Shown piece after piece: positions 3,474 to 63,616 of a stretch of 64,000 nucleotides of DNA. This DNA comes from Candidatus Omnitrophota bacterium (lineage in GTDB: Bacteria > Omnitrophota > Gorgyraeia > Tantalellales > Tantalellaceae), in assembly GCA_024277375.1 (NCBI GenBank), contig JAJRVD010000041.1:2323-66322 (forward strand), written 5' to 3'. Made by a program: the position numbers and the translations under genes. Numbering within the stretch: position 1 is the stretch's first letter; every line of letters begins with the position of its first letter. Below the pieces are notes generated by a model, which made no database searches, had not been told where the DNA came from, and worked only from the letters and a program-made list of their open reading frames with translations.

Positions 3474-3589
3474 GCTGTGTCGTAATTCGTTTTGCGGATG
3501 GCCGTATGCAATATATTATATCGGGTTCGATCCATCGAACCCGATATAACGGGCTTGATAAATCAAGCCCCTACATTATGACACAGCCT
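3474..3589 (-). mobile_element. MITE-like repeat, copy 1, inverted orientation, with one internal hairpin variant
   Basis: GGCTGTGTCGTAATTCG...GGGCTTGATAAATCAAGCCCCTACATTATGACACAGCC; member of a 12-copy family in this window. Confidence 0.8.
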
Positions 3590-3617
3590 GTAGAGAGGGT
3601 TCTGTTCTACAGAAAAA

Positions 3618-3661
3618 GGGGCCAGTCCACGCGCTCGCTTTGCTCGCTTGGGACAGTCCCC
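3618..3661. repeat. GGGGACAGTCC-type hairpin element, copy a; acts as a bidirectional terminator after tRNA-Val
   Basis: GGGGCCAGTCCACGCGCTCGCTTTGCTCGCTTGGGACAGTCCCC with A5 on one side and T6 on the other. Homologous copies lie at 34277-34335 and 40017-40058. Confidence 0.6.
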
Positions 3662-3676
3662 TTTTTTCCGTTAAAC

Positions 3677-3754
3677 TGGTGGGCGATGTAGGAGTCGAAC
3701 CTACGACATCTACCTTGTAAGGGTAGCGCTCTAGACCAACTGAGCTAATCGCCC
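3677..3754 (-). tRNA. tRNA-Val (TAC)
   Basis: Reverse complement is GGGCGATTAGCTCAGTTGGTCTAGAGCGCTACCCTTACAAGGTAG...GGTTCGACTCCTACATCGCCCACCA. Anticodon TAC. Confidence 0.9.
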
Positions 3755-3808
3755 TATATAAAATTCGTAACGGCTATTATAGCCTAGACCCTTGTCGCGG
3801 TCAAGCTT

Positions 3809-6328
3809 CTACTCCTTCTCTTCGGATCGTTCGCCGCCGGAAGCGTCTCCCTCTTCCTTCTGGGGGCTTAGTCCAGCCGCCTGTTCTTCCGCCTCGTCCT
3901 CTTCTTCTTTCGCGATAACCTTAGCAATATCCGTTAATTTGTCAGCTGCCTTTAAGTTTATAACTCTAACTCCTTGAGTAGATCGACCTATATTGCTTAT
4001 CCCGTTAACCGGAACTCTTACCACCATCCCCGCTTTTGACATTAGCATTACGTGGTTCTCTTCGCGTACGCTTCTGATCCCGACAACCGGCCCGTTCTTT
4101 TCAACTATCTTAAGGTTTATAACACCGCTTCCCCCGCGGGATTGCATTCTATACGCGTCGAATTCTGTCCTTTTTCCGAACCCTTTTTGGGTAACCGTTA
4201 AAAGCGTTCCATCCGGATCGGTTTTCACCATGCCCACAACAATATCTTTCTTTTTAAGGCTTATGCCTTTAACACCTTGCGCGCCTCGTCCCATGGACCT
4301 GATGTCTTTTTCTCTAAACTTGATCGCTTTCCCGCTTTCGGTGGCTAGACAGATCTCGTCCTCTCCGTTGGATAGAAGAGATTCTATAAGCTTGTCTCCT
4401 TTTCCGAGGGTGATGGATATTATTCCGCCTTTCCGCGGGTTACTAAATGCTTTAAGTGGTGTCTTTTTTATCTTTCCCTGCTCGGTCGCCATAACAACAT
4501 ACTGCCCTTCATGAAATTCTCTCACAGGAACAACGGATGTTATCTTTTCGTCTTGTGAGATCCCGATAAGGTTGACTATAGGCCGGCCTTTTGTTCTCCT
4601 GCCCGCTTGAGGAATAGTGTGCACTTTTAACCAGTGCAGTTTCCCTTCCGAGGTAAAGATCAGCATATAGTCATGCGTTGAGGCAACAAACAAATGTTCA
4701 ATAAAGTCTTCTTCTTTTGTTTCCGCGCCGGTCACACCTTTTCCTCCGCGCCGTTGTTTTTTGTACGCGCTCACCGGAAATCGCTTGATATATCCGGCGT
4801 GACTTATCGTAATTACCATGTCTTCCTCGGCAATAAGATCTTCTATGTCTATGTCTTCAGCCGCCGCGGTTATTTCCGTGCGTCTTCTGTCTCCGAACTT
4901 CTCTTTTACCTCAACGGTCTCATCTCTTATTATTTTCATCACTTTCTGGTCGCTCGCGAGGATCCCTTTAAGCTTTTCTATAAGTTTTAAAAGCGTCAGA
5001 TATTCATCTTCGATTTTTTTTGTCTCAAGGCCCGTAAGTTGCTGCAACCTCATAGCGAGTATCGCCAGTGCCTGTCGTTCCGAAAGACCGAACTTTTTAA
5101 TAAGGTCTTCTTTCGCGGCCTCCGGATCTTTCGATTTCTTTATCAGCTTTATTACTTCGTCCAGATTGTCCAGGGCGATCTTTAAGCCTTCAAGAATATG
5201 CGCTCTTTCTTCCGCTTTTGCCAAATCGAATTTTGTCCTGCGAACAATGACTTCTTTTCTGTGTTTAATAAAAAGCTCCAAAACTTCTTTCAGGCTTAAC
5301 ACCCGAGGCTCTCCGTCGACTATGGCCAACATTATCACACCAAAGCTATCTTTCATCTGTGTGTGCTTGAACAGCTGGTTCATGACCACTTCCGCGTTAG
5401 CCCCTCTTTTGATGTCTACCACTATTCTCATGCCATCTCTGTCAGACTCATCTCTTATATCTGAGATGCCATCAACTTTTTTGTTTTTGACAAGATCCGC
5501 GATAGCCGTGATCAATTTGGCCTTGTTGACCTGGTACGGGATCTCTGAAACTATGAGAGCTTCTCTTCCCTGCTTCTTCTGTTCTGTATGCACTTTAGCG
5601 TGAAGTTTTAAATACCCTCTTCCCGTAAGATACGCTTTACGTATACCGTCACGCCCGCAGATAAGAGCACCTGTCGGAAAATCCGGACCGGTAACTATTT
5701 TTAGCAGGTCCTCGATGGGGCACGCGGGTTCATCTATTACGTGACATACCGCGTCAGCGATCTCTGTCAAGTTGTGCGGCGGAATGTTTGTCGCCATCCC
5801 TACCGCTATTCCGCTGGAGCCGTTAAGAAGAAGGTTGGGGAGAACGGCAGGCAGAACCGTCGGCTCTTGAAGCGATCCGTCAAAGTTAGGTCTCCATTCT
5901 ATTGTTTTTTTCTCTATGTCTTTCATCATCCATTCGGAGATCTGCTGCATTCTGGCTTCGGTATACCTCATCGCCGCGGCTGAATCGCCGTCTACAGACC
6001 CGAAGTTGCCTTGCCCGTTCACCAGCGGGTATCTAAGCGAAAACTCTTGTACCATGCGCACCAGAGCGTCATAAACCGCGCTGTCGCCATGCGGATGATA
6101 TTTACCCAAAACTTCACCAACGATCCTCGCGCATTTTTTGTAAGCTTTGTTGTGCACTATCCCCATATCTTTCATGGCGTATAAGATACGTCTGTGTACG
6201 GGCTTTAAGCCATCCCTGACGTCGGGTAAAGCGCGCCCCACAATTACGCTCATGGCGTAATTGATGTAGGAGTTCTTCATTTCTTCTTCAATATGTATCG
6301 GTATTATTCTCTCGTTCTGCGTATACAT
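3809..6328 (-). CDS. gyrA: DNA gyrase subunit A
   Basis: 839-aa ORF with the N-terminal GyrA signature ([28 protein letters not shown]) and a C-terminal beta-pinwheel. Confidence 0.97.
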
Positions 6329-6387
6329 TTATTTTCCTTTCTTTTCCTTTAGTGAAGATTGCTGCGTCGCTCCGCTCCTCGCGATCA

Positions 6388-6506
6388 GACTGTGTCATAA
6401 CGTAGGGGCTTGATTCATCAAGCCCTTTATCTCGGGTTCGATAAATCGAACCCCTACAATATATTGTTTTCTCCGGCCAGCCGCAAAACAAATTACGACA
6501 CAATCC
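6388..6506 (+). mobile_element. MITE-like repeat, copy 2
   Basis: GACTGTGTCATAACGTAGGGGCTTGATTCATCAAGCCC..GGGTTCGATAAATCGAACCCCTAC...AATTACGACACAATCC. Confidence 0.8.
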
Positions 6507-6521
6507 GAATGACAGGGCACT

Positions 6522-9029
<2,508 letters not shown>

Positions 9030-9035
9030 TTATTT

Positions 9036-9353
9036 TTATCTTTCGTCGTTATTTTCCGGGCCGCCCACTCTAAATCTTATATCTTTCGCTTTTTTTCTTC
9101 CCGTATAGTTTTTGTTAAACTTTTCTATTATTTTTCTTTTTTCAAGCGTAAGCTTATACAGCCTTGTTGAGTTTTCAACAATAACCGTTAATACCCCGTT
9201 TTTTAAACTTACCGGATACGCTTGCTGTAAGTCTTTTTCCGCCACAGCTGTTTGCCAGGCAGCTTTTACCGCGGCTCCTTTTTTTACATTACCTGTCTCC
9301 CATTTCTGTAGGAGACCGTCGACGATCCCTTTTATGTGCGGCGTGTGTCTCAT
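9036..9353 (-). CDS. DUF721/DciA-like small protein, in the position typical between dnaN and gyrB
   Basis: 105 aa. The pattern VSLKNGVLTVIVENSTRLYKLTLEKRKIIEKFN matches the DUF721 consensus, and the gene sits in the dnaA-dnaN-X-gyrB slot. Confidence 0.55.
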   Translation of the reverse strand: MRHTPHIKGIVDGLLQKWETGNVKKGAAVKAAWQTAVAEKDLQQAYPVSLKNGVLTVIVENSTRLYKLTLEKRKIIEKFNKNYTGRKKAKDIRFRVGGPENNDER

Positions 9354-9356
9354 GTT

Positions 9357-10460: not shown

Positions 10461-10563
10461 TTTTCCCTCCTGGTTCTCTTTAAACACCAACCCACTGTAT
10501 TACTGTTCTGTTATTCTATTTAAAAAAACAGTAGTCTTAGTTTTAGTAATGTAGGTGTTTTTC

Positions 10564-10689
10564 TGTGGATAACTCCGTAAATTATGATTAATGTATGTTT
10601 TACGTAAAAAAAAACCTGTGGACATCTAGTCCTCTTGTTGTGCGTAATGTGGATAAACCTATGAAGAGTTGTCCACAAGAAATCCACAA
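10564..10689. promoter_or_regulatory. Cluster of DnaA boxes in the dnaA-dnaN intergenic region
   Basis: TGTGGATAA at 10564-10572 and 10648-10656, TTGTCCACA at 10669-10677 and AATCCACAA at 10681-10689. Confidence 0.55.
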
Positions 10690-10696
10690 GAAAAAC

Positions 10697-12097: not shown

Positions 12098-12106
12098 AAA
12101 AAACAA

Positions 12107-12616: not shown

Positions 12617-12618
12617 GA

Positions 12619-17271: not shown

Positions 17272-17765
17272 GGTGTCCTGCTCCTTTCAGTGCCCAAAGT
17301 GCCCAGAAAAAACACACCACAAAACCTCAAAATGGACAATACAAAGTGTACCACAGTTTTTCCCAATAGTCAAAATTAACGCAAAAAAAAGCAACAAAAT
17401 TTTAGCGATTTAAAAAAAACAAAATACGCAAAAAAAACTCAAAAACATAAAGCCATAAAACCTTTGGTTGTAAGGTGTTATGCTTGCAGGAAAAAGGAGA
17501 GGCCACGGCATGGGAGTGCCCATATTTTGGGCACCGTCTAAAAAAGCAGGCAAAACCCGGGAAAACTTTGAGATATAAAAAAAGAGTTTTTGGATACGTG
17601 GAAAAGGAGCACAAAAGAGCCAAAGAACGGGAGACCCAGGGGCACTAAAAGATTTGTGCCAGGAAAAGCAAGATATCCCACCTGTTGAAAACCTGTGCAT
17701 AACTACATAACATTTTTAGCTATAATGAGTTATGCGTGTAAAACAAAACGCTGTTTTTTCAATCA

Positions 17766-17882
17766 GACCGTGTCATAATGTAGGGGCTTGATTCATCAAG
17801 CCCGTTATATCGGGTTCGATAAATCGAACCCCTACTATGTCTTGTATGCGGCCATCCGCAAAACAAATTACGACACAGCTCG
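17766..17882 (+). mobile_element. MITE-like repeat, copy 3
   Basis: GACCGTGTCATAATGTAGGGGCTTGATTCATCAAGCCCGTTATATCGGGTTCGATAAATCGAACCCCTAC...AATTACGACACAGCTCG. Confidence 0.85.
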
Positions 17883-18083
17883 AATGACGAAAGTTCCGTT
17901 TTGTAGGATCCTTTTTGAGTTTCAAGAACCCCGCATGTTGAGGGCCGAAAAATCTAAAGACGGTTACGCTGCTGTCAAAAAAGTGAATAGCCAGAGTTTT
18001 TGGTATAGCGAAGCAAGTTTCCGTCCGCTTTGCCTTCGGCAAATGCTCAAGGAGCCTTTTTGACCGTTTCACAGGCCAAAAAG

Positions 18084-18099
18084 GTTTCCACGTGGAAAC
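18084..18099. promoter_or_regulatory. parS: parS-like centromere site, a perfect 16-bp palindrome GTTTCCACGTGGAAAC
   Basis: One-symmetric-change variant of the consensus tGTTTCACGTGAAACa, about 400 bp upstream of parA. Confidence 0.6.
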
Positions 18100-18280
18100 T
18101 CTTCTTTGGGCAGTACAAAGGGCCCGGTGAATTCCTACCAGGTTTCCCTGTACGGAATCCCGCACACATCCTTTCCCGGATATAAAACAAATTCTAAGGC
18201 CGACCTCGCACGGGATAATACACAGCATCTTTCGCCACAATAAAACCATCAGATGTCATCCTGAGCGAGGCCCGATTGCA

Positions 18281-18396
18281 GACTGTGCCATAATGTAGGG
18301 GCTTGATTCATCAAGCCCGTTATATCGGGTTCGATGAATCGAACCCCTACATTATGTTGTATACGGCCATTCACGAAACGAATTACGACACAGCCC
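18281..18396 (+). mobile_element. MITE-like repeat, copy 4; supplies a spurious N-terminal extension to the parA ORF
   Basis: GACTGTGCCATAATGTAGGGGCTTGATTCATCAAGCCC...AATTACGACACAGCCC. Confidence 0.85.
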
Positions 18397-18497
18397 GCTT
18401 GTCCCGAGCGAAGCCGAGGGAAAGGGCCGAGTCGAAGGATCTAAAAACGCGAGATAAATCATTGACACAAGAACACCCGTGTGATATAGTGATTTCG

Positions 18498-30597: not shown

Positions 30598-30614
30598 TAC
30601 ATGAACTTAGAACC

Positions 30615-30720
30615 TTTTAACATGGTCCCGAGAGGCCGTAAAAGGAGTTAAAATGAACCGAAAGAACCATATATTTGAGCCTGCTTGTCACTCTAGACGT
30701 GACGGGGAGGCTTTTTTTTG
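30615..30720 (+). promoter_or_regulatory. PyrR-dependent transcription attenuator: PyrR binding loop, a possible leader peptide and an intrinsic terminator
   Basis: GGTCCCGAGAGGCC at 30624-30637 matches the PyrR box UCCNGNGAGG. A small leader ORF (MNRKNHIFEPACHSRRDGEAFFCDRVQ) follows. A hairpin ending in T8 at 30712-30719 lies just upstream of pyrR. Confidence 0.6.
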
Positions 30721-30768: not shown

Positions 30769-31308
30769 ATGAATCTTGAGATAAAAGCAAAAGTGTTGGA
30801 TGAAAAGGGAATAAAAAGGACATTGCAGAGGATTTCCCACGAGATCCTGGAGAAAAATCAAGATGTCGGGACCCTTGCGATCGTTGGGATCAGAACAAGA
30901 GGAGCGTATCTGGCGGAAAGGATAGCCGAGAATATACAACAGATCGAAGGCAAAGAGGTTCCGGTAGGCGCGCTTGATATTACTCTGTACAGAGATGACT
31001 TAACGGAAGTTTCCGAACAACCGGTAATACGGTCGACCGAAATAGAGTTTGATCTGAACGGCAAACAGATAATACTTGTGGACGATGTTCTATATACGGG
31101 AAGGACGGTACGGTGCGCGCTTGACGAATTGATAGATTTCGGAAGGCCCGCTAACATACGACTGGCGGTCCTTATAGACCGCGGCCACAGAGAATTTCCG
31201 ATCCGTCCGGACTATGTGGGCAAGAACATACCGACAGCCAAACAGGAGAGTGTTGAGGTGCGCTTAAAAGAAACGGATGACGCAGAAGAGGTAAACGTCT
31301 TAGCGTAA
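30769..31308 (+). CDS. pyrR: Bifunctional pyrimidine operon regulator/uracil phosphoribosyltransferase PyrR
   Basis: 179 aa with a PRTase fold ([17 protein letters not shown]). Confidence 0.95.
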
Positions 31309-31353
31309 CCAACTCCCATACCGGGTATGATCCATACCCGGTATGGGAGTTGG
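31309..31353 (+). promoter_or_regulatory. Perfect 21-bp-stem palindrome between pyrR and pyrB, a possible second attenuator or processing hairpin
   Basis: CCAACTCCCATACCGGGTATGatcCATACCCGGTATGGGAGTTGG. Confidence 0.4.
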
Positions 31354-31365
31354 TAAAGGGGAGAT

Positions 31366-33652: not shown

Positions 33653-34561
33653 ATGTCAAAACTAATCAGAAAAACCCAAAAAATAGCAATAATTTCGAAC
33701 AAAGAGGTTTGTTCAGCCCACTTTGTCATGGAACTAGAAGCACCTTTTCTGGGCGAAAATTCAGCTCCGGGTCAGTTCATTAACATAAGGGTTGATGAAG
33801 GTACGACAGATCCGCTTTTGAGGATACCTCTGGGGATTCATAAAATACATGAGGGTGGGATAAGCTTGTTATACAAGGTGGTTGGTAGCGGTACACAGAT
33901 ATTGAGCAATAAAAAACAAGGGGATCAAGTAGATGTCCTAGGCCCACTTGGAAAAGGGTTTGATGTCGCACGGGTAGAGGCGTATGGCAATACGCCCCTA
34001 CAAAGTACAAAACAAGACCCCGAGGCAATTCTTGTTGCCGGCGGACATGGAATAGCGCCGCTTTACGCGTTGGCGGAAAGCCTGGCGGAGAAAAAAATTA
34101 AGACAACATTTTTGATCGGAGTCAGGTCGCGGGATCATCTGGTATGTGTGGATGAACTAAAAAGCTTAGGCGCCGAAGTTCAAATAGCGACCGAAGACGG
34201 CTCGGCTGGTTATGAGGGATACGTTACGGAATTGCTTGAGGAACTATTGAAACAAGTGATGAAAGGCGAGGTTAACGGGGACAGTCAACGCGCTCGCTTC
34301 TCGCGGCTTCGCTCGGGACAGGAGGGACAGTCCCCTGGCGAACAACAAACGATGATATATTCCTGTGGGCCACGTTTGATGTTACGAGCCCTCTCAAAAG
34401 TAGCGCTAGAAAATAACACGCCGGCGCAGGTTTCGCTCGACGCGTATATGGCTTGTGGTGTCGGGGCCTGCTTAGGGTGCGCTGTTAAAACCAAAGACGG
34501 ATATAAAATGGTCTGTAAAGACGGTCCGGTTTTCGACTCGAAGGAGATACTGTGGACTTAA
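33653..34561 (+). CDS. pyrK: Dihydroorotate dehydrogenase electron-transfer subunit, carrying an in-frame ~24-aa insertion derived from a repeat element
   Basis: FAD/NAD-binding fold plus a C-terminal 2Fe-2S cluster CGVGACLGCAV. The insertion GEVNGDSQRARFSRLRSGQEGQSPGEQQ corresponds to the GGGGACAGTCC element at 34277-34335. Confidence 0.9.
   Translation: MSKLIRKTQKIAIISNKEVCSAHFVMELEAPFLGENSAPGQFINIRVDEGTTDPLLRIPLGIHKIHEGGISLLYKVVGSGTQILSNKKQGDQVDVLGPLGKGFDVARVEAYGNTPLQSTKQDPEAILVAGGHGIAPLYALAESLAEKKIKTTFLIGVRSRDHLVCVDELKSLGAEVQIATEDGSAGYEGYVTELLEELLKQVMKGEVNGDSQRARFSRLRSGQEGQSPGEQQTMIYSCGPRLMLRALSKVALENNTPAQVSLDAYMACGVGACLGCAVKTKDGYKMVCKDGPVFDSKEILWT
34277..34335. repeat. GGGGACAGTCC-type hairpin element, copy b, lying inside the pyrK reading frame
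   Basis: GGGGACAGTCAACGCGCTCGCTTCTCGCGGCTTCGCTCGGGACAGGAGGGACAGTCCCC, homologous to the intergenic copies at 3618 and 40017. Confidence 0.6.
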
Positions 34562-36928: not shown

Positions 36929-36994
36929 TATATCGGGCGCCATAAATGGCGCCCGATATGCAGTGGTAGGGGTTCGATTTATCGAACCCGAATA
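36929..36994. repeat. Partial MITE-like repeat, copy 5, plus a TATCGGGCGCC/GGCGCCCGATA palindrome
   Basis: GTAGGGGTTCGATTTATCGAACCCGAATA includes the RBS region of the downstream V-ATPase E gene. Confidence 0.6.
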
Positions 36995-37602: not shown

Positions 37603-37627
37603 ATAGCGTGCATAGTTTAACAGGGTG

Positions 37628-37738
37628 TATCATGATGTAGGGGCTTGATTCATCAAGCCCGTTATATCGGGTTCGATAAATCGAACCCCTATAATATGCT
37701 GTAGGCAGCTTTTCACAATGTGACTTGTGACACAGCCT
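37628..37738 (+). mobile_element. MITE-like repeat, copy 6, lying inside the V-ATPase operon
   Basis: CATGATGTAGGGGCTTGATTCATCAAGCCCGTTATATCGGGTTCGATAAATCGAACCCCTATAATATG...GTGACACAGCC. Confidence 0.85.
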
Positions 37739-40013: not shown

Positions 40014-40016
40014 ATC

Positions 40017-40058
40017 GGGGACAGTCCACGCGCGGCTTCGCCGCTTGGGACAGTCCCC
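40017..40058. repeat. GGGGACAGTCC-type hairpin element, copy c, immediately after the atpA stop
   Basis: GGGGACAGTCCACGCGCGGCTTCGCCGCTTGGGACAGTCCCC. Confidence 0.6.
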
Positions 40059-40191
40059 TGAGCAACCCACTGTCGTCCCGACCGAGCGCGGCCGAGGGAC
40101 ACCGTTCCCGAGGTCATTCTGAGGGCAGAGGGTCTCAGGGTAGCGAGCGGAGGGATCTTTGTGGGAAATAATATAACGGAGGGTAGTACAA

Positions 40192-41502: not shown

Positions 41503-41578
41503 GAGCCGCCTCCGGCGGCGAACTATAAAATGATGTAATTAGTTCGCGGCCCATCGGCGAAGCCGATACCGCTCCTGA

Positions 41579-41699
41579 GGCTGTGTCGTAATTCGTTTTG
41601 CGGATGGCCGTATACAATATATTGTAGGGGTTCGATTTGTCGAACCCGATATAACGGGCTTGATGAATCAAGCCCCTACATTCATTATGACACAGTCTG
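41579..41699 (-). mobile_element. MITE-like repeat, copy 7, inverted orientation and flanked by 43-bp direct repeats
   Basis: GGCTGTGTCGTAATTCGTTTTGCGGATGGCCGTATACAATATATTGTAGGGGTTCGATTTGTCGAACCC...GGGCTTGATGAATCAAGCCCCTACATTCATTATGACACAGTCTG. The direct repeats lie at 41532-41574 and 41720-41762. Confidence 0.85.
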
Positions 41700-41793
41700 C
41701 CTACGGGATAAGATATGCAGATGTAATTAGTTCGCGGCCCATCGGCGAAGCCGATACCGCTCATACAGGATACGATATATAAACGGCGCAATT

Positions 41794-44242: not shown

Positions 44243-44285
44243 ATAGTTTTGGTAGCAATGCAAGTAACCGTAGGAGCGGCCTCTG

Positions 44286-44373
44286 GCCGCATACAATATA
44301 TTGTAGGGGTTCGATTTGTCGAACCCGATATAACGGGCTTGATGAATCAAGCCCCTACATTATGACACAGTCT
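44286..44373 (-). mobile_element. MITE-like repeat, copy 8, lacking one terminal inverted repeat
   Basis: CGCATACAATATATTGTAGGGGTTCGATTTGTCGAACCCGATATAACGGGCTTGATGAATCAAGCCCCTACATTATGACACAGTCTGG. Confidence 0.8.
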
Positions 44374-44432
44374 GGTTGAAAAAACAGCGTTTTGCATGAG
44401 TCTATAATTTATAACTGGATAAGGAGGTAAAT

Positions 44433-45672: not shown

Positions 45673-45675
45673 ACT

Positions 45676-47532: not shown

Positions 47533-47615
47533 TTTGTCGTTCGTATCTCGTATTTCGTGGGTTTGGGCTAAACATTCGTCATTGCGAGGAACGAGATTGC
47601 TTCACCTGTCATTCA

Positions 47616-47731
47616 GGTTGTGTCATAACGTAGGGGCTTGATTTATCAAGCCCGTTATATCGGGTTCGATAAATCGAACCCGATATAATATGTTGTATGC
47701 AGTCCTTCACAAGGTGATTTGCGACACAGCC
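47616..47731 (+). mobile_element. MITE-like repeat, copy 9
   Basis: GTTGTGTCATAACGTAGGGGCTTGATTTATCAAGCCCGTTATATCGGGTTCGATAAATCGAACCCGATATAATATG...GCGACACAGCC. Confidence 0.85.
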
Positions 47732-47768: not shown

Positions 47769-48443
47769 ATGAAAGCAGGCACACTTTATATCGTAAGCAC
47801 TCCTATCGGCAACCTTGAAGACATAACGTTCAGGGCCGTACGCGTTCTGAAAGAAGTCGATCTCATCGCGGCCGAAGACACTCGGCGAGCAAAGATACTT
47901 TTGAATAATTACGGGATCTCGACACCTCTTACAAGTTATCATTCGTACAATCTAAAACTTAAAACTTCTCGACTTGTAGATAAACTCCGTGAAGGTAAAG
48001 ATATCGCGCTTGTTTCCGATTAGGGAACACCGGGGATATCCGATCCGGGAAGTGTTTTTGTGTCAGAGTGTATCTCTAATGATATTTCCGTCACAACGCT
48101 TCCGGGGCCGACAGCATTTGTCGCGGCACTGGTTTTATCCGGCATGCCGACACATAAAGTTGTTTTTGAGGGCTTTCTTTCTAACAAGAAGGCCAGGCGT
48201 CGTAAACAGCTGGAAAACTTAAAAAATGAAGATAGAACAGTTGTGTTATATGAATCTCCTCATAGATTGGTAAAATTTCTGCAGGATTTTCTGGATATCT
48301 ATGGAGACAGAGAGATCGCGATCGCCCGTGAGATCACCAAAAAGTTTGAAGAGGTCAGAAGAGCAAAGGCCGGTATACAACTTGAGTATTTTACGGACAA
48401 TAAGCCTCGAGGGGAATTTGTTATGGTATTTCAAAGCGATTAG
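47769..48443 (+). pseudogene. rsmI: 16S rRNA (cytidine1402-2'-O)-methyltransferase RsmI interrupted by an in-frame TAG at 48021-48023
   Basis: The ORFs 47769..48023 and 48060..48443 share one frame. The translation reads ...KDIALVSD*GTPGISDPGSVFVSE..., and the conserved RsmI motif ALVSDAGTPxISDPG spans the stop. Confidence 0.7.
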
Positions 48444-48580
48444 ACGTTAGTGTAATAGTAATCATTGACTTTTTATTGCTAATTGTTACAATATAGGGTG
48501 CGTCAGGACGATATAATTTATGGTAGGGGCACGGCATGCCGTGCCCCTACTTTAATATTTGATAAAATGGAAGGTGAAAA

Positions 48581-52718: not shown

Positions 52719-52810
52719 TTATATTTGCTTTGCAAAAATTGCGGAGCACCGAAACATTGATCAATCGGTAGGGGCGTATCGCGATACGCCCCTATGTAGA
52801 ACACTTGGTC

Positions 52811-52896: not shown

Positions 52897-52970
52897 ATTT
52901 GATTTAGAAACGGTAGGGGCATATAGCCATACACCCCTACAACATGTATTAATAGTTCCAAGGCGAAACA

Positions 52971-54740: not shown

Positions 54741-54850
54741 AGCGCACAGCGTAAATCGAATAGTTTTAGTGGGGCGGTCGAGGAAGAATCAAACGGAATT
54801 TATCTAAACGCTGTCCGCTCTACGCTTAGGGTTATGCAAAATGGAACTTT

Positions 54851-54963
54851 CGTAATTCGTTTGGAGTATGGCCGCAGACAATTACAGTATATTGTAGGGG
54901 TTCGATTCATCGAACCCGACATAAAGGGCTTGATGAATCAAGCCCCTACATTGTGACACAGTT
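54851..54963 (-). mobile_element. MITE-like repeat, copy 10, inverted orientation
   Basis: CGTAATTCGTTTGGAGTATGGCCGCAGACAATTACAGTATATTGTAGGGGTTCGATTCATCGAACCC...GGGCTTGATGAATCAAGCCCCTACATTGTGACACAG. Confidence 0.85.
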
Positions 54964-55020
54964 TGATTTGAAAACGGCGTTTTGCGGAACTCTAGCTGTA
55001 CGTTAAATAAGGAGGTAGTT

Positions 55021-55596: not shown

Positions 55597-55625
55597 GAAT
55601 AAACACAAAAAGAGGTGAAGATAAG

Positions 55626-55823: not shown

Positions 55824-55848
55824 TAGAGTGTAAAAGAAGGAGAAAGAG

Positions 55849-56199
55849 ATGCCACGAGTAAAACATGCGTCAAGCTCGCTTAAAAGAAGAAAAAAGACCC
55901 TTAATGCCGTAAAGGGACAACGCGGATCAAGGTCTAAATTGCTTAGAACGGCTAAAGAGGCTGAACGTAAGAGCATGATCTCAAGCTACATCGACAGGAA
56001 AAAGAAAAAAAGTAATTTTCGGTCATTGTGGATCACACGGATCACCGCGGCTTGTAAAGCGGAAGGAACTTCTTACAGCAAGTTTATCGCGGGACTTAAA
56101 AAAGCGAACATCGAGCTTGACCGGAAGATCCTGGCGGATCTTGCGGAAAACGACGCGAAAGCGTTCAAAACACTCATAAAACAAGTTGCGGTAAAATAA
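55849..56199 (+). CDS. rplT: 50S ribosomal protein L20
   Basis: [38 protein letters not shown]... Confidence 0.93.
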
Positions 56200-56299
56200 A
56201 TGAGACCACAGCTTATGGAGCAAAGTGACATAAGCTGTGTGGACGAATTTATTCCCGCGGAAGCGGGGAGTCATGGAAGAAATAGATTTCCGTTTTTCA

Positions 56300-56414
56300 G
56301 ACTGTGTCATAATGTAGGGGCTTGATTCATCAAGCCCGTTATATCGGGTTCGATAAATCGAACCCCTACATTATGTTGTATGCGGCCACCCGCGAAACGA
56401 ATTACGACACAGCC
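56300..56414 (+). mobile_element. MITE-like repeat, copy 11
   Basis: GACTGTGTCATAATGTAGGGGCTTGATTCATCAAGCCCGTTATATCGGGTTCGATAAATCGAACCCCTACATTATG...AATTACGACACAGCC. Confidence 0.85.
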
Positions 56415-56445
56415 TGTTCACGGGAATGACAGTGGAAACTAAACT

Positions 56446-57789
56446 ATGGGAAGGTTAACTCCTCCACAAGTCTTGATATTGAGTTTTCTGTGCGCGATAC
56501 TGATCGGCACGGCAGCGTTGTCGTTGCCGATTGCTACAGAAGGTCCGGAGAGAATGACGTTGGTAGATAGTCTTTTTACCGCTACCAGCGCTACATGTGT
56601 TACCGGGCTTATTGTAAAAGACACATCGAGTCATTTTGCTACGTTCGGGAGATGGGTTATCTTCGCGTTATTTCAAATGGGCGGCTTGGGGATAATGACC
56701 TTTTCGACCCTTTTTGCCGTAATGCTGGGGAAAAAGCTGGGCTTCCTGGAAACCGATATTCTTCGGAATACTCTGGATAAACACAACATTCTTGGATTAA
56801 AAAAGCTTATCGTGTATATTTTAGGTATCACGGTAGCCACCGAAGCTATCGGTGCCGCGGTTTTGTTTTTCAGGTGGCGGATGATAACGGATTGGACTGT
56901 TGTGGCAACTCTGGAAAAGTCTATCTTTCACGCTGTATCGGGATTTTGTAACGCGGGCTTCGCTCTGTTCGCGAACAGCCTGGAAAGTTTTAGCGCGGAT
57001 CCGGTAATAAACCTGATAATGATAGCGCTTATATTTTTAGGCGGTATCGGATTCGTCGTTATTCTGGATTCTTTAGGGCTTTTATATAAACGCGGTCCGG
57101 AGAGAAGACTTAGCCTCCAGTCAAAGATAGCGCTTACGACATCTTTGGTTCTTATAGTGGTGGGAGCGCTTTTAATATTTATTTTTGAAAAAGATAATCT
57201 CTTGAGAGTTATGTCCTGGCCTCAACGTTTGTGGGCTGCCACGTTCCAGTCGGTAACGGCAAGGACTGCCGGGTTTAATACGATACCTATAGGCCAGATG
57301 GCGACACCTACTCTTTTGTCTCTGGTGTTTTTGATGTTTATAGGGGCATCACCCGGTTCGACAGGTGGCGGAATAAAGACCTGTACCTTTGCTATTTTAA
57401 TAGCGGCGGTAGCTACTATGATAAGGAACAGAAAGCATGTCAGGCTCTATAATCGTTCCATACCAACCCAAGTTATACGAGAGTCTATAGTAATATTTCT
57501 TTTGGCGGGTGCTTGGGTGTTTATTTTTACGGTAGTACTCACCTGGGTAGAAGCGGGCCACGCGGGCGGTACGAGCTTGATGAAATCTTTATTTGAAATA
57601 GTTTCAGCTTTTGGCACGGTAGGTCTTTCAACGGGTATAACAGAAGGGCTTAGCAGCGCGGGTAAATTATGTGTAACCGCGACGATGTTCGCGGGAAGGC
57701 TGGGACCGTTAACGCTTGCTTTGGCCATAGCTTTTAAAGAAAGAAAAGAAAGTTATCGTTTTCCGGAAGAAAGCGTAATGGTAGGATAA
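56446..57789 (+). CDS. ktrB: Potassium uptake protein, TrkH/KtrB family
   Basis: 447 aa, multi-TM with GLG-type selectivity motifs (QMGGLGIMTF). Confidence 0.9.
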   Translation: MGRLTPPQVLILSFLCAILIGTAALSLPIATEGPERMTLVDSLFTATSATCVTGLIVKDTSSHFATFGRWVIFALFQMGGLGIMTFSTLFAVMLGKKLGFLETDILRNTLDKHNILGLKKLIVYILGITVATEAIGAAVLFFRWRMITDWTVVATLEKSIFHAVSGFCNAGFALFANSLESFSADPVINLIMIALIFLGGIGFVVILDSLGLLYKRGPERRLSLQSKIALTTSLVLIVVGALLIFIFEKDNLLRVMSWPQRLWAATFQSVTARTAGFNTIPIGQMATPTLLSLVFLMFIGASPGSTGGGIKTCTFAILIAAVATMIRNRKHVRLYNRSIPTQVIRESIVIFLLAGAWVFIFTVVLTWVEAGHAGGTSLMKSLFEIVSAFGTVGLSTGITEGLSSAGKLCVTATMFAGRLGPLTLALAIAFKERKESYRFPEESVMVG

Positions 57790-57806
57790 TCTAACAGGAG
57801 GATCCC

Positions 57807-58481
57807 ATGAAACAGTTTGCTGTTATAGGTTTAGGGCGGTTCGGATCCAGTGTGGCGGCGGCACTTGCGGAAAAAGGACAGCAGGTTATCGCGATCGATA
57901 CTAACGAAGATCTGGTGCACGATGTGATGGATATCGTTACAAAAGCGGTATGTATGGACGCTACTGATGAAAAAGCGGTTAAGTCCGTGGGGATACAAAA
58001 TGTTGATGTGGCTATATGTGCCATAGGCACGGACATTGAAGCTAGTATTTTGATAACACTGTTGTTGAAAGATCTTGGTATTCCCGTGATCATAGGAAAT
58101 GCAGTGAGCACAGCCCATAAAAAAGTTCTCGAAAGGGTAGGGGCTACAAAAGTTATTCAGCCTGAAAAAGATATGGGCAAGAGGATAGCCGATACTTTGA
58201 CCTCTGTGACCGACACGGTAATAGACCATGTAGGGATTTCGGAGAATTCCAGTGTTATAGAACTTATCGCTCCGGAAGAATTTGTTGGCCAGACTTTGAG
58301 GGATCTGGACATCAGAACACGGTTTGGCGTAAATGTCATAGCTATTAAGAGGAAGGCGGATAAAAATTCAGATGAGACGATCAATATAACTCCCCAGGCG
58401 GATGATGTTGTCGCGAAAGAAGATGTGCTGATCCTGTTTGGAGAGAACGCTAAGATCGAAAACCTAAATAAAAAAAGCTGA
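57807..58481 (+). CDS. ktrA: Potassium uptake regulatory subunit KtrA/TrkA (RCK_N plus RCK_C)
   Basis: AVIGLGRFGSSVAAAL Rossmann motif, 224 aa. Confidence 0.9.
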   Translation: MKQFAVIGLGRFGSSVAAALAEKGQQVIAIDTNEDLVHDVMDIVTKAVCMDATDEKAVKSVGIQNVDVAICAIGTDIEASILITLLLKDLGIPVIIGNAVSTAHKKVLERVGATKVIQPEKDMGKRIADTLTSVTDTVIDHVGISENSSVIELIAPEEFVGQTLRDLDIRTRFGVNVIAIKRKADKNSDETINITPQADDVVAKEDVLILFGENAKIENLNKKS

Positions 58482-58485
58482 ACAA

Positions 58486-59508
58486 ATGAACGCGTTAGAA
58501 AAACTTGAAAAAATAAAAATAGATGTTGAGACGGCTCTGGCAGAGGCCAAGGGCGCGCAAGAGGTAGATTCGGTCAGAGTGAAATACTTGGGGCGAAAAG
58601 GTGAGCTTACGTCAATTTTGAGATCTCTATCTGATCTTTCAAAGGAAGAAAAAGCCGAGGTCGGAAAACGCGCAAATATACTAAAAGGTGAACTTGTCGC
58701 GAAGTTTACTCAAGCGCAAAACGCGATGGAATCAGAACAGTCAAATTCCGTGGGAAAAGAAATAGACGTAACTCTACCGGGGATCGCTCCGAGAGTGGGA
58801 ACCGTTCATCCCTTAACCCGGGTAATGGTACGGATTAACGAAATATTGATCTCGCTCGGGTTTAAAATAGCGGAAGGACCGGAGATAGAATCAGAATTTT
58901 ATAATTTTGAAGCGCTGAACATCCCCTTAGATCATCCTTCTCGAGACGCGTTTGATACGTTCTATATCGATAAGGAATATCTTCTTAGAAGCCATACGTC
59001 TAACGTACAGATACATGTTATGCAAAATCAAGCTCCTCCGCTTCAGGTTATTATGCCCGGCAGGGTCTACCGGCCCGACGCGGTAGATGCTTCACATTCT
59101 TTTATGTTCCATCAGGTCGAAGGGCTTATGGTCGACAAAGGGATAAAGTTTTCTGACCTTAAAGGCGTGCTTTCAATGTTTTGTAAGACAATGTTCGGTA
59201 AAGATATAGAGACGAGGCTCAGGCCTCACTTCTTTCCGTTCACCGAACCCAGCTGTGAAGTTGATATTTCCTGTATAATGTGTATGGGCAAAGGATGCCG
59301 TGTATGCTCAGGTAACGGCTGGCTGGAGATCCTGGGAGCGGGGATGGTGAATCCTAAGGTGTTTGAATCCGTAGGATACGATCCGAACGAATACACGGGT
59401 TTTGCTTTTGGGATGGGAGTTGAAAGAATAGCCATGCTTTTGTACGGGATAGAAGACATTAGATTATTTTATGAAAATGATGTAAGATTCTTGAAGCAGT
59501 TTAAATAA
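58486..59508 (+). CDS. pheS: Phenylalanine--tRNA ligase alpha subunit
   Basis: 340 aa with class II motifs (FRPDAVDASHSFMFHQVEGL). Confidence 0.95.
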   Translation: MNALEKLEKIKIDVETALAEAKGAQEVDSVRVKYLGRKGELTSILRSLSDLSKEEKAEVGKRANILKGELVAKFTQAQNAMESEQSNSVGKEIDVTLPGIAPRVGTVHPLTRVMVRINEILISLGFKIAEGPEIESEFYNFEALNIPLDHPSRDAFDTFYIDKEYLLRSHTSNVQIHVMQNQAPPLQVIMPGRVYRPDAVDASHSFMFHQVEGLMVDKGIKFSDLKGVLSMFCKTMFGKDIETRLRPHFFPFTEPSCEVDISCIMCMGKGCRVCSGNGWLEILGAGMVNPKVFESVGYDPNEYTGFAFGMGVERIAMLLYGIEDIRLFYENDVRFLKQFK

Positions 59509-59522
59509 GTTGCAGAGAATAC

Positions 59523-59592
59523 ACACCGGGTTTGGGACGAAGTCCCAAACCGACGAAGTCCCAAACCCCGACGAAGTCCCAAACCCGGTGTG
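59523..59592. repeat. Three tandem 16-bp units (GACGAAGTCCCAAACC), each a mini-hairpin GGGACgaaGTCCC, enclosed by a 15-bp inverted repeat
   Basis: The outer inverted repeat is CACACCGGGTTTGGG / CCCAAACCCGGTGTG, between pheS and pheT. Confidence 0.7.
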
Positions 59593-59607
59593 GAAACGGT
59601 CAACATT

Positions 59608-61653
59608 ATGAAAATAAGCTACAACTGGATAAAAGAATACGTAAAGTTAAAAGCGAATTCCGAGGAACTCGCGAAAGGTCTTACTATGTCCGGTTCGGAA
59701 GTGGAGGGCATAGAGTCGCGTGAAGGCGACCAGATCATGGGCTTGGAAATTACTTCCAACCGGCCCGATTGCCTTAATATGGTAGGCATGGCAAGAGAAG
59801 CTTCGGCGGTTTTTGATGTGGACTTACGGCTTCCCGATATGGGTATCGCGCCCGCGGTAGCCGCCCCGGGCGGCCCCGAAGTGGAATGCGTGATTAAAAA
59901 TACAGATTTATGTCCGAAGTATACCGCCAGGATCATATCGGGTGTTAATGTTTCTCCGGGTGAGGGCAAAATATCCGAAAGGATACAGTCTCTGGGCGTG
60001 CGTCCGGTAAACAATATAGTAGACATTACTAATTTTTGTCTGATGGAGTCAGGCCAGCCGTTACACGCGTTTGACCTGGATAAGATAAAAGGTGAGAAGA
60101 TAATTATTCGTGAAGCGACTGACGGAGAAAAAATAACGACCATTGACGGGATCGAAAGAAAGCTTAACAAGGGCATGCTTGTGATCGCGGATGAGTCGGA
60201 CCCGATAGCCATAGCGGGTATAATGGGCGGCAAAAATACTGAAGTTACCGAAACCACCAGAAATATCCTTTTGGAAAGCGCGTATTTTGAGCCGATATCC
60301 ATACGCCGGACGGGTAGAGTATTGGCGCTTTCGAGTGATTCCAGCTATCGGTTTGAGCGCGGTGTTGATAGAGGTATGATAAACGCGGCTTCTGACAGGG
60401 CGACAGCTCTCATAGTTTCTGAAGCGGGCGGGACAATACATGACTTTTATGAAGAGGGTAACCTTACGGCGGAGAAAGTGTCAATAGACCTGGATGTAGA
60501 CCGCGCGGGAAATACGCTTGGTATTCTTCTCGGAAAAGATCAGGTAATGCACATACTGCAGAGACTGGGGATGGAAGTCGAAGATGAAGGTATGTCCAAG
60601 ATAAAAGTAATCGTGCCGACGTTTCGGGAAGACCTCCAAAAAGAAATAGATCTCGTTGAAGAGATCGCGCGAATTTACGGGTACGATAAAATACCGACAA
60701 CAGTCGCCAGGATCGTTCCGCAGATCGTGAGAAAGGAATACTCTCGGCGTGTAATAGAAAAATTACATGAAGTTCTTCCTTCGGCGGGATTGAACGAGAT
60801 AATGACTTATAGTTTAATAAGCGAAGCGGCCGTTCAAAGACACGCGGCCATTACTAAAGATCCGGTCGAGTTGGCAAACCCGTTATCGGAAGACCAGAAA
60901 ATATTAACGCCACAGCTGTTAGACGGGATGCTAAAATCCATTTCCTGGAATATAAACAGGAACAATAAAGACCTGGGCCTCTTCGAGATCGGGAAAATTT
61001 ACTCTAAAGGAAGCGGGAAAGAAAAATTTATTGAAACACCTGCTTTATGTGTAGCGTTGTCGGGTGTTCTGAGAAAGAATTGGTCGGAAGACGCGCGCGA
61101 AGCTCACCTGTATGATCTCAAAGGTGTAATAGAGCTCGTTTTCCGTAAGATGTCTATCTCGGCCGGTTTTAAAAAGACAAACATTGAGGGGTTAAAAGCG
61201 GCCACCGAAGTAAGGCTTGACGGGGAAAAAGAAAGTATTGGGTTCATGGGTGCGGTTGATAAACCCCTGTTGAACCAGTATAACATAGAGCAACCCGTTT
61301 TTATCGCGCAAATAAAACTGGATAAAGTTATAGAGAAAGCCACCTTAGCTACACGTTATCGGGCTATTCCCCGATTCCCGTTTTCGTCGAGAGATATATC
61401 CATCCTTTGTGACGAGGCCCTTGCCTCCTCAGAGATATACAACATTCTTTCCTCTTCGGCGGAAGAGATCATCCGCGGTGTTGAATTGGTGGATACGTAT
61501 GAAGGCAAACAGATAGAAGCCGGCAAAAAAAGTCTTACATATAGTGTTAAGTACGGACTGGACACGCGTACTTTAACAGACGAAGAGATCGATCCCGTTC
61601 ATTCTAAAATAAAAGATACTTTACAAAAAAAATTAGGCGTCTCCTTTCGATAG
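59608..61653 (+). CDS. pheT: Phenylalanine--tRNA ligase beta subunit (short form)
   Basis: MKISYNWIKEYV... N-terminus with the B3/4 and B5 domains. ATG at 59608; the ORF track starts at GTG 59590. Confidence 0.95.
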   Translation: MKISYNWIKEYVKLKANSEELAKGLTMSGSEVEGIESREGDQIMGLEITSNRPDCLNMVGMAREASAVFDVDLRLPDMGIAPAVAAPGGPEVECVIKNTDLCPKYTARIISGVNVSPGEGKISERIQSLGVRPVNNIVDITNFCLMESGQPLHAFDLDKIKGEKIIIREATDGEKITTIDGIERKLNKGMLVIADESDPIAIAGIMGGKNTEVTETTRNILLESAYFEPISIRRTGRVLALSSDSSYRFERGVDRGMINAASDRATALIVSEAGGTIHDFYEEGNLTAEKVSIDLDVDRAGNTLGILLGKDQVMHILQRLGMEVEDEGMSKIKVIVPTFREDLQKEIDLVEEIARIYGYDKIPTTVARIVPQIVRKEYSRRVIEKLHEVLPSAGLNEIMTYSLISEAAVQRHAAITKDPVELANPLSEDQKILTPQLLDGMLKSISWNINRNNKDLGLFEIGKIYSKGSGKEKFIETPALCVALSGVLRKNWSEDAREAHLYDLKGVIELVFRKMSISAGFKKTNIEGLKAATEVRLDGEKESIGFMGAVDKPLLNQYNIEQPVFIAQIKLDKVIEKATLATRYRAIPRFPFSSRDISILCDEALASSEIYNILSSSAEEIIRGVELVDTYEGKQIEAGKKSLTYSVKYGLDTRTLTDEEIDPVHSKIKDTLQKKLGVSFR

Positions 61654-61662
61654 CGTAGGAGC

Positions 61663-61695
61663 GGCCTCCGGCCGCTTATTTATCGCAAGACCTTG
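61663..61695 (+). terminator. Intrinsic terminator hairpin of the GTAGGAGCGGCCTCCGGCCGC family
   Basis: GTAGGAGCGGCCTCCGGCCGCTTATTTATCG lies after the pheT stop. Similar hairpins follow atpB (41503-41521) and atpI (44268-44290) and occur near 20160. Confidence 0.5.
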
Positions 61696-61873
61696 CGGGC
61701 ACAGAGACGAAGTGATATAATCTAGTTAACACTTCCTGTCGAATTTGTGAAGCGGAACGCAGAATTGGGCCAACACTTTAATATCGGGAATCTAACTTCG
61801 GGAATTTTTAAAAAATTGTCGAGAGGGTACCCACCTGGGAATACCAGGCCACCAATTCTCTTTTCGTGCACGG

Positions 61874-61908
61874 TTTGATGGTTCTAGGGCCGGATTTATC
61901 CGGCCCTT
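61874..61908 (+). terminator. Intrinsic terminator (GGGCCGGATttatcCGGCCC followed by TTTTTATTT)
   Basis: GC stem with a T-rich tail; it may end a short transcript initiated near 61723 (TGATATAAT). Confidence 0.5.
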
Positions 61909-62242
61909 TTTATTTCTGACTCCAGGAGGGTATGGTATGTTCCTACCAGGCATAGCCTGTACGGAACATACCATACCCTCCTGTGAACAGAATACATTAG
62001 GAACACGGATAAAGCTCTATGGGGAGGGGAAAAATAGGTACGAGCCATCTTTGGGGCCAGGCCCCAAAGGGCCACCCCTGAGCACAAAAAAAGAGCATAT
62101 TTTACGATTTTTATGTTTGCTGAGGTTCTGGGGGAGAGTCGCTTTGTCATCCCGACCGGAGCGAATGGATCTATTTCATTAGAGATCCTTCCCTGAAACC
62201 CTCTGGTTTCAGGATGACAAGGCTAATACAACAAACGCAAAT

Positions 62243-63553
62243 ATGGATTTTTTTGAGCAGGCAAAAACTAAAATGAAAACCACTATACCTCTTTCGGCGA
62301 GGATGTGCCCCGAAGCCTTAGAAGACTTTTTCGGCCAAAAGCACATAATTGGCGAAGGCAAACTCTTAAAGAGAGCGATAGAGGCGGACAGGATCAGTTC
62401 TGTTATCTTTTACGGTCCTCCAGGTATAGGTAAAACCGCCCTGGCAGTCGTTATATCTAAAACGACAGGCGCACAATTCATTAAACGCAATGCCGTCTCC
62501 AGCAATGTCTCAGATATAAGAAAAGTAATAGAAACAGCCAAAAAACAGAGAGAATTTCAGGGAAAAAAGACTATATTGCTCTTAGACGAGATCCACAGGT
62601 TCAATAAAGCACAGCAGGATGTGCTTCTTCCGGAGGTAGAAGGTGGGAATCTTATATTAGTAGGCACAACAACAGAAAACCCATATTTTTCCGTTAATTC
62701 CGCGCTTATATCGAGAAGTCAGGTGTTTGAATTTAAACCTCTGGAAGAAGAAGATATTCTCCGGGCTTTAAACAAGGCTCTTCGCAACGAGGAAAAAGGT
62801 TTTGGAAAGACGAAAGTTCACGCGGATGAGGAGGCCTTACGTCACCTCGCGAAAATTTCCGATGGGGACCTTCGTAAAGCGTTAGGTGCTTTGGAAATAG
62901 CCGTTCTTACAACTCTGCCTGACAAGAACGGAACGGTCAACCTTACGTTAAAAGAAGCGGAAGAATCCATACAGAAAAAAGCCATAGTATACGATAGGGA
63001 TGGTGACGCGCATTATGATGTTGCCTCGGCCTATATAAAAAGTATGAGAGGAACGGACCCTGACGCGGCACTTTACTGGCTCGCGAAAATGATAGTTGCG
63101 GGAGAAGATCCGCGGTTTGTCGCGAGACGTCTTGTTATATGCGCCTCGGAAGACGTCGGGAACGCCGACCCCCAGGCGCTTGTAGTGGCAAACGCGGCAA
63201 TGCAGGCATCTGATTTTGTCGGGTTTCCCGAAGCGCGGATACTTTTGGCACAGGCAACGGTTTATGTCGCGTGCGCCCCGAAAAGCAATGCTTCATATAT
63301 GGCTATTGATAAAGCGATAAGTGATGTTGAAAAAGAAAGAACGCAGGAAGTCCCGGAGGCCCTTAAGGACGCGAGTTACCCCGGCGCTAAAAAATTAGGA
63401 CACGGTGAAGGATACAAGTACGCGCATTCTTATGACAATCATCATGTGAAACAAGATTACACGCGAAATAAAAAGAAATATTATATCCCGACAAATATGG
63501 GGTATGAGAAGAGGATCAAAGAGTGGCTCGAGAAACTGAACCCCAGATCCTAG
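62243..63553 (+). CDS. rarA: Replication-associated recombination protein A (RarA/MgsA, AAA+ ATPase)
   Basis: Walker A GPPGIGKTALA plus the C-terminal MgsA domain, 436 aa. Confidence 0.93.
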   Translation: MDFFEQAKTKMKTTIPLSARMCPEALEDFFGQKHIIGEGKLLKRAIEADRISSVIFYGPPGIGKTALAVVISKTTGAQFIKRNAVSSNVSDIRKVIETAKKQREFQGKKTILLLDEIHRFNKAQQDVLLPEVEGGNLILVGTTTENPYFSVNSALISRSQVFEFKPLEEEDILRALNKALRNEEKGFGKTKVHADEEALRHLAKISDGDLRKALGALEIAVLTTLPDKNGTVNLTLKEAEESIQKKAIVYDRDGDAHYDVASAYIKSMRGTDPDAALYWLAKMIVAGEDPRFVARRLVICASEDVGNADPQALVVANAAMQASDFVGFPEARILLAQATVYVACAPKSNASYMAIDKAISDVEKERTQEVPEALKDASYPGAKKLGHGEGYKYAHSYDNHHVKQDYTRNKKKYYIPTNMGYEKRIKEWLEKLNPRS

Positions 63554-63560
63554 ATATCTG

Positions 63561-63616
63561 CAGGGGTTCGATCCATCGAACCCGATATAAACGGGCTTGA
63601 TAAATCAAGCCCCTAC
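63561..63616. repeat. Partial MITE-like repeat, copy 12
   Basis: CAGGGGTTCGATCCATCGAACCCGATATAAACGGGCTTGATAAATCAAGCCCCTACAACG. Confidence 0.6.

Follow-up and report, generated by a model that had tools for sequence, protein, structure and literature searches.

GTAG-tagged hairpin pairs resembling REP dimers account for about a fifth of the non-coding sequence in the origin region of a Candidatus Omnitrophota genome

The window analysed here, a 64-kb stretch of contig JAJRVD010000041.1 from a Candidatus Omnitrophota bacterium, contains a dispersed family of short hairpin-forming repeats that probably belong to the repetitive extragenic palindromic (REP) sequences tagged with GTAG. Omnitrophota is an uncultured phylum with small genomes. 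The window represents the chromosomal origin region, with dnaA, dnaN, recF, gyrB and gyrA on the minus strand and a sign change of GC skew near 12 kb, and it also carries parAB, a pyrimidine operon, a V-type ATPase (V-ATPase) operon, thrS-infC-rplT, trkHA, pheST and a 6S RNA gene. The gene order matches that of the Omnitrophica metagenome-assembled genome (MAG) GCA_014728045.1, and the best matches to the threonyl-tRNA synthetase (ThrRS) were 64–75% identical and were assigned to Candidatus Omnitrophota or Omnitrophica wherever they were named.

The copies were aligned and turned into a profile, and a search of the window with this profile detected 10 full or near-full copies, 1 core-only copy and 1 single hairpin unit. 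An earlier note on this DNA had described a densely spread family of short structured elements that are non-coding and end in inverted repeats; both the description and the positions of the ten full or near-full copies and the partial ones were borne out by the profile search, and a repeat scan of the window recovered families at the same coordinates. The first full copy (3473–3590, minus strand) lies between tRNA-Val and tRNA-Asp, and its second hairpin has a longer stem, ATATCGGGTTCGAT/ATCGAACCCGATAT, instead of a GTAG tag. The copy at 6386–6503 (plus strand) lies between gyrB and gyrA, with the gyrB stop codon 18 nt before it and a GAATGACAG motif to its right. Two further full copies on the plus strand, at 17764–17880 and 18279–18395, are located upstream of parA in a 1.2-kb region without a convincing gene (17272–18497) that follows a GGDEF/HD-GYP gene; the likely parA start is 102 nt downstream of the second copy, and the open reading frames (ORFs) called in this region look spurious, among them one of 158 residues between the two copies that had no family match.

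Three copies were found among the V-ATPase genes: a full copy with a variant right arm (37621–37737, plus strand), with the stop codon of a V-ATPase E-like gene 18 nt before it; a full copy between the genes for subunits B and D (41579–41699, minus strand); and a copy whose right arm is replaced while its core and left arm are intact (44258–44374, minus strand), 15 nt after the V-ATPase I stop codon. The remaining copies lie between glmS and an rsmI-like gene (47614–47731, plus strand, a full copy with a variant right arm and a CTGTCATTC motif to its left), between thrS and infC (54846–54965, minus strand, right terminus degenerate) and between rplT and the ktrB-like trkH (56298–56414, plus strand), the last being the full copy nearest of all to the consensus. 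The core-only copy at 63560–63616 (profile match 63552–63617) is a head-to-head dimer without outer arms, with the mgsA stop codon 6 nt before it. In a fragment at 36930–36989 (plus strand), also without outer arms, a variant hairpin, ATATCGGGCGCCAT AA ATGGCGCCCGATAT, precedes one GTAG-GGGTTCGAT unit, whose limits are 36966–36989 and whose profile match is 36964–36991.

All of the 12 sites are intergenic, as had been noted before, although non-coding DNA accounts for only 11.7% of the annotated span. The elements cover 2.0% of the window and ∼18% of what is non-coding in it. Eight of the 10 copies are placed between co-directional genes, several of them 15–18 nt after a stop codon, and the adjoining ORFs include those for V-ATPase c, L20, IF3 and similar proteins. 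No orientation bias relative to transcription was observed, with six copies co-oriented and four opposite. The spurious N-terminal ORF extension reported for parA (LIHQARYIGFDESNPY...) does arise from the copy at 18279–18395, but the one reported for the DUF2764 gene of the V-ATPase cluster derives from the right arm of the element and not from the MIHQARY... peptide.

Each element is ∼117 bp long, where a size of 115–160 bp had been proposed, and is bounded by a 16-nt terminal inverted repeat (TIR), CAGRCTGTGTCRTAAT, which is longer than the one first noted and whose two ends match at 14 of 16 positions. The boundaries are sharp in 8 of the 10 copies, the outer stem and two inner hairpins are present as had been described, and a further small hairpin is contributed by the right arm. 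At the centre of the element are two GTAG-tagged perfect palindromes with the consensus GTAG-GGGYTYGAT-NN-ATCRARCCC, each folding into a 9-bp stem with a 2-nt loop (TY). Read on their own strands, these are GTAG-GGGCTTGAT-TY-ATCAAGCCC (REP-A) and GTAG-GGGTTCGAT-TY-ATCGAACCC (REP-B); they are inverted with the GTAG tags facing outward and separated by an 8-nt spacer, and thus form a head-to-head heterodimer. There are 18 occurrences of the CATAATGTAGGGG motif in the window, where 1.1 would be expected, and 21 GTAG-tagged hairpin units were observed where 0.00 were expected by chance. The exact full pattern is found in 18 of these 21 units, the others being one with a GCAG tag, one with an ATAG tag and one loop variant with the tag intact (listed at 41624 and 44303). 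Nine head-to-head dimers carry both tags; in 2 further full copies a longer stem stands in place of the second tag, and in one this tag reads ATAG. An extra outer layer, CTGTCATTC/GAATGACAG, had been proposed for several copies, and this motif indeed adjoins 4 of the 10, but its 18 matches across the window are not above chance (12.3 expected).

The identity between copies is 94% in the core, 81% in the left arm and 68% in the right arm, so that conservation peaks centrally. The unit folds far more stably than its shuffles, both as DNA (z = −7.5) and as RNA (z = −8.7 to −10.1). The predicted single-stranded DNA fold is an outer stem bearing both hairpins, and in the predicted RNA fold REP-A pairs with REP-B as one long hairpin, which is the geometry of REPINs (REP doublets forming hairpins). 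The anatomy corresponds to the hallmarks described for the GTAG REP superfamily, namely a short GC-footed palindrome that has GTAG at its base, loops of the TY type, which occur in many published GTAG families, and head-to-head heterodimers (PMC3733652). Membership of the superfamily is defined by GT[AG]G at the foot of a stem-loop with a stem of 5–13 bp and a short loop, in which complementary changes keep the pairing, and by numerous scattered copies that are chiefly extragenic and frequently form inverted dimers; paired GTAG hairpins are the defining anatomy of the REP dimers and REPINs that are tied to Y1 transposases known as REP-associated tyrosine transposases (RAYTs) (PMC3733652, PMC6006769).

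We then examined single units in metagenomes, where the single-unit pattern matched at least 120 contigs while a random 24-mer of such degeneracy would be expected about once; 140 loci, denoted here by L and a number, were fetched. In 145 of 155 non-redundant metagenome units, both variable stem positions were Watson-Crick paired, as compared with 48.5 of 155 expected if the two sides varied independently, and four stem variants were seen. These compensatory changes across lineages indicate that the hairpin is under selection. The partner hairpins differ (GGGTCGGAT, GGGCGTCAT, GGGCTCAAT and others), with the GGG foot and the GTAG tag kept. Unit pairs were arranged head-to-head in 50 cases, in tandem in 43 and tail-to-tail in 7, the head-to-head arrangement with 5–11-nt spacers being the commonest. 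Core-only copies also occur in many other lineages, and among the GTDB species representatives the dimer pattern was found in one unrelated MAG as a core dimer without arms. Copies in the window differ at many positions (mean pairwise identity 82%) and have unique flanks beside conserved genes, the counts far exceed the shuffled expectation, and independent assemblies contain these units as well; an assembly artefact, or unrelated palindromes brought together by chance, therefore has a negligible probability. The contig does come from a metagenome assembly, and the earlier note had named such an artefact as what would undo its claim, but this explanation is refuted by the alignment and the counts.

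Two side observations concern these other loci. A head-to-tail array of five GTAG hairpin units with a GGGTTCAAT stem, of which the last four recur every 39 bp, was found in L021 (6240–6410) and is clustered, in contrast to the dispersed dimers of the window. Regularly spaced metagenome units of this kind were considered as CRISPRs and rejected, since their spacing is irregular or the units abut. Single GTAG-GGGTTYGAT units were also present in 10 stretches from 9 putative viral contigs of IMG/VR (L131–L140), on which no RAYT gene was detectable.

The same units were found in and beside RAYT genes elsewhere. In L064, positions 250–894 encode a 215-residue Y1_Tnp protein (Pfam PF01797, E = 4e-5) whose only PDB match was TnpA_REP of Escherichia coli (4er8). 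Right after its HUH motif, this protein contains an in-frame head-to-head REP dimer, translated as VGARFIVP-NDL-GFDKSNPY, in which GFDKSNPY is the translation of REP-B of the window. At least 7,973 homologues were found, many of which are named 'REP element-mobilizing transposase RayT' by the Joint Genome Institute; a translated GTAG palindrome is seen at the corresponding position in almost all of the best 120, and the inserts among these 120 include GLDKSSPY, the translation of REP-A. At the DNA level, units were located upstream of and inside the RAYT genes of L122, L125 and L126, and inside and just downstream of that of L074. In-frame REPs are a known feature of subclass 2.4 TnpA_REP genes (Quentin et al. 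2018, PMC6006769), and the traits published for subclass 2.4 REPtrons recur in L064, L074, L122, L125 and nearly all of these best 120 homologues. The REPtron description covers the neighbourhood of the transposase gene, whereas the window holds a dispersed population without the gene.

With regard to the surroundings of these RAYT genes, in the related Zixibacteria-like contigs L122, L123, L126 and L127 the gene always lies in the order pcrB, RAYT and a SIS-domain gene, which is consistent with vertical retention of a single-copy gene within that lineage. L122 had been considered as an Omnitrophota carrier of a RAYT and was placed in Zixibacteria instead. In L125 (10001–17727; Ca. Scalindua/Brocadiaceae S225), three RAYT copies lie within ∼7 kb and adjoin a type III CRISPR-Cas locus with RT-Cas1; an annotated ORF of the 23S_rRNA_IVP family comes after two of them, and a small ORF without annotation after the third.

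The signs of insertion were then evaluated at the ends of the elements. No target-site duplication is expected for Y1-type enzymes. In 9 of the 10 copies, no flanking repeat of 8 nt or more was shared between the two sides. The exception is the copy at 41579–41699, which together with ∼25 nt of extra sequence is enclosed by a perfect 43-bp direct repeat (41532–41574 and 41720–41762; span 41532–41762), far longer than a normal target-site duplication. Because this repeat is perfect, it suggests a recent event that duplicated the flanking DNA. Flanking segments are known to be reiterated together with REPs (PMC3733652), and models of rolling-circle-like amplification have been put forward for REPs (PMC3333891).

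The earlier note had likened the family to miniature inverted-repeat transposable elements (MITEs) derived from insertion sequences (ISs), such as Correia elements of Neisseria and the palindromic elements (RPEs) of Rickettsia, and in a classical arrangement of this type a DDE transposase encoded elsewhere would act on the 16-nt terminal repeats while the REP dimer would be a nested passenger. We regard this as improbable. The family does share with Correia elements and RPEs a size of ∼100–150 bp, terminal repeats, a high density and placement in operons, and RPEs also occur in frame in genes; the inverted-repeat termini (CAGRCTGTGTCRTAAT) are clear, with sharp boundaries in most copies. In addition, L080 contains the outer inverted-repeat halves abutting without a REP dimer (TGTATCATTAAT|ATTATGACACAGCCTGAATGACAGG, 2755–2795) and followed by GAATGACAG, suggesting that the outer palindrome can exist alone. 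However, this match is single and weak (E = 0.046 in about 1 Mb), target-site duplications are absent in nine copies, and there is no sequence similarity to Correia elements or RPEs; the conserved core is the central pair of GTAG hairpins and the termini are less conserved than it (94% against 68–81% in the arms), and core-only copies exist in the window (63560–63616) as in many other lineages. No transposase was present in the window, and no parent IS with matching ends was found in the window, the 140 fetched loci or the plasmid, phage and viral collections. The outer arms were absent from the 140 fetched loci except for the match in L080, and neither the arms nor the whole element matched any plasmid, phage or viral-contig record, so the arms appear essentially private to this genome.

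The window was also compared with four syntenic Omnitrophota loci (L124, L128, L129 and L130; 77 kb), in which there were no GTAG hairpin units, as compared with 23 in the window. The spacers of glmS-rsmI, thrS-infC and rplT-trkH are 33, 47 and 10 bp in L128, respectively, and 236, 241 and 246 bp in the window, where each contains one element. The inserted appearance suggested earlier thus agrees with the orthologous junctions, which are 10–47 bp in relatives against ∼240 bp here. Given the distance of these relatives, a gain of the elements in the present lineage would be the simpler, although not proven, reading.

The same comparison bears on the possibility that the motifs were selected by the host and kept for use, either as RNA structures that stabilize or attenuate operon transcripts or as 20-bp palindromic protein-binding sites. 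The placement between co-directional genes, at several sites closely behind a stop codon, and the very stable predicted folds are what such a role would produce, and REPs of E. coli affect mRNA and bind host proteins, as summarized in two reports (PMC3733652, PMC2817692). However, the same operons lack the units in the syntenic relatives, the copies show no orientation bias with respect to transcription, and a binding-site or RNA role explains neither why the GTAG tag is asymmetric nor why RAYT genes contain the units. An Rfam search of the copies gave no match at the gathering threshold or at E ≤ 1. Intrinsic terminators were considered and rejected because the full copies are not followed by T-runs; a terminator-like score was obtained only for a double-foot palindrome (48522–48551) and two single hairpins. 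We consider selection by the host as the primary explanation to be improbable, but it is compatible with a REP origin as a secondary effect, and a role of the transcribed copies as RNA structures, which had also been proposed, is plausible by analogy with REPs in general.

Taken together, we consider it likely that the elements are REP dimers of the subclass 2.4 type, spread by a RAYT through recognition of the GTAG-plus-hairpin structure on folded single-stranded DNA, as has been described for RAYTs (PMC3333891, PMC8266576). In this model, the hairpins would fold on single-stranded DNA and a RAYT/TnpA_REP (a Y1 HUH nuclease of subclass 2.4, RAYT group 4) would recognize the hairpin with its GTAG foot, cut, and rejoin nearby. 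Copies would thereby spread to tolerated sites, mostly just downstream of genes and at times in frame within genes, without target-site duplication. Those within operons would be co-transcribed and would yield very stable RNA or DNA structures, by which mRNA stability may be affected incidentally; any effect on mRNA would be secondary. The cognate RAYT is presumably encoded elsewhere in this genome, and such an enzyme would mobilize the whole 117-bp unit. A more specific version, in which the RAYT copies the entire 117-bp composite, with the 16-nt terminal repeats as the cleavage and joining sites and the 43-bp duplication as the scar of a recent copy-in that replicated the flank, is conceivable but rather unlikely. 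If the composite is the copied unit, it would be a REPIN variant with defined termini and, because the 24-nt units are common to Omnitrophota, Zixibacteria and Planctomycetota, also a REP-RAYT system that is passed between phyla and not strictly inherited.

Several results weigh against the REP dimer interpretation. A tblastn search detected no RAYT gene in the window, where only short REP-encoded peptides matched, and the RAYT carriers that could be placed belong to Zixibacteria (L122) and Ca. Scalindua, not to Omnitrophota. The relatives with empty sites are merely 70–75% identical in ThrRS, at which distance loss there and gain here are formally indistinguishable. The check by folding and covariation that the earlier note had suggested gave a fold well beyond that of shuffles but no covariation among the ten copies of the window, because their stems are invariant. 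Finally, a 16-nt TIR is unusual for REPINs and could point to a different mobilizing enzyme.

Compared with published GTAG REPs and the bacterial interspersed mosaic elements (BIMEs) formed by them (Di Nocera et al. 2013, PMC3733652; Ton-Hoang et al. 2012, PMC3333891), the family has the same GTAG foot, 9-bp stem and TY loop, the same predominance of head-to-head heterodimers, the same intergenic location, in most cases between co-directional genes, with in-frame copies inside genes on occasion, and a similar mosaic of units with other small stem-loops. It differs in that the window palindromes are perfect, while those of E. coli REPs are bulged, that only an 8-nt spacer is used, that the dimer is set in a fixed 117-bp unit with its own TIR, and that the phylum Omnitrophota is not among the reported hosts. 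As in REPINs (Bertels and Rainey 2011, PMC3116915; 2017, PMC5581495), two inverted REPs form one unit that can fold as a single long hairpin, and the elements are high-copy, non-autonomous and presumed to depend on a RAYT encoded elsewhere; unlike in the REPIN-RAYT system, a cognate RAYT was not seen in the 64 kb. The occurrence of the 24-nt units across several phyla fits the patchy, transfer-prone subclass 2.4/group 4 and not the vertically inherited groups 2 and 3.

The kind of element, the dimer architecture, the in-frame intragenic copies and the REPs inside RAYT genes are thus already published, and what is new is the host phylum, Omnitrophota, which no paper found in our literature search pairs with REPs, and the fixed composite with its own terminal repeats. 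GTAG-type REP/REPIN elements are extended here to a phylum in which they amount to about a fifth of the non-coding DNA of the window and interrupt core operons (gyrBA, V-ATPase and thrS-infC-rplT). For annotators, the repeats account for spurious ORFs and N-terminal extensions (GFDKSNPY, GLDKSSPY and VGA...) and for an in-frame insert in pyrK; for the REP field, the near-identical 24-nt units across phyla and the fixed composite provide material for the question of what exactly RAYTs mobilize.

Four other GTAG palindromes in the window were absent from the earlier note. A 'double-foot' palindrome, GTAGGGGCACGGCATGCCGTGCCCCTAC, lies between the rsmI-like gene and ndk (48523–48550) and belongs to the same superfamily with a different stem, and a degenerate double-foot palindrome lies between tRNA-Leu and thrS (52913–52940). 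The palindrome GGGCGTATCGCGATACGCCC was found between tRNA-Val and tRNA-Leu (52768–52795, plus strand). The fourth (33974–34001, minus strand) is in frame inside pyrK and corresponds to an 11-residue insert relative to a homologue. The pyrK gene (33653–34561) has two in-frame inserts relative to the homologue in L103, the second of which is 19 residues long and comes from a different repeat, of the GGGACAGTCCCC family (34306–34336).

That repeat is part of a second set of small repeats, found at 3610–3666, 34306–34336 and 40016–40059 and also at 18255, 40113 and 47578. The set comprises two types, one of GGGACAGTCC(CC) hairpins with a CGCTCGC...-type interior and one with a GTCATYSYGAG motif that adjoins several of the main elements. 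The rsmI-like methyltransferase gene (47769–48443) next to the glmS copy contains an in-frame TAG at 48021–48023 where relatives have Ser (VSD*GTPG vs VSDSGTPG); possible explanations are a pseudogene, a sequencing error and recoding. Three long hairpins unrelated to the family were also observed, with perfect 22-nt arms at 31308–31354, perfect 17-nt arms at 59522–59592, and 38-nt arms that are 82% complementary at 61914–61992, directly after the 6S RNA gene. The region of 30609–30717, which precedes the pyrimidine operon, resembles a PyrR-binding-site RNA and scored 51.5 bits, against an Rfam gathering score of 54.

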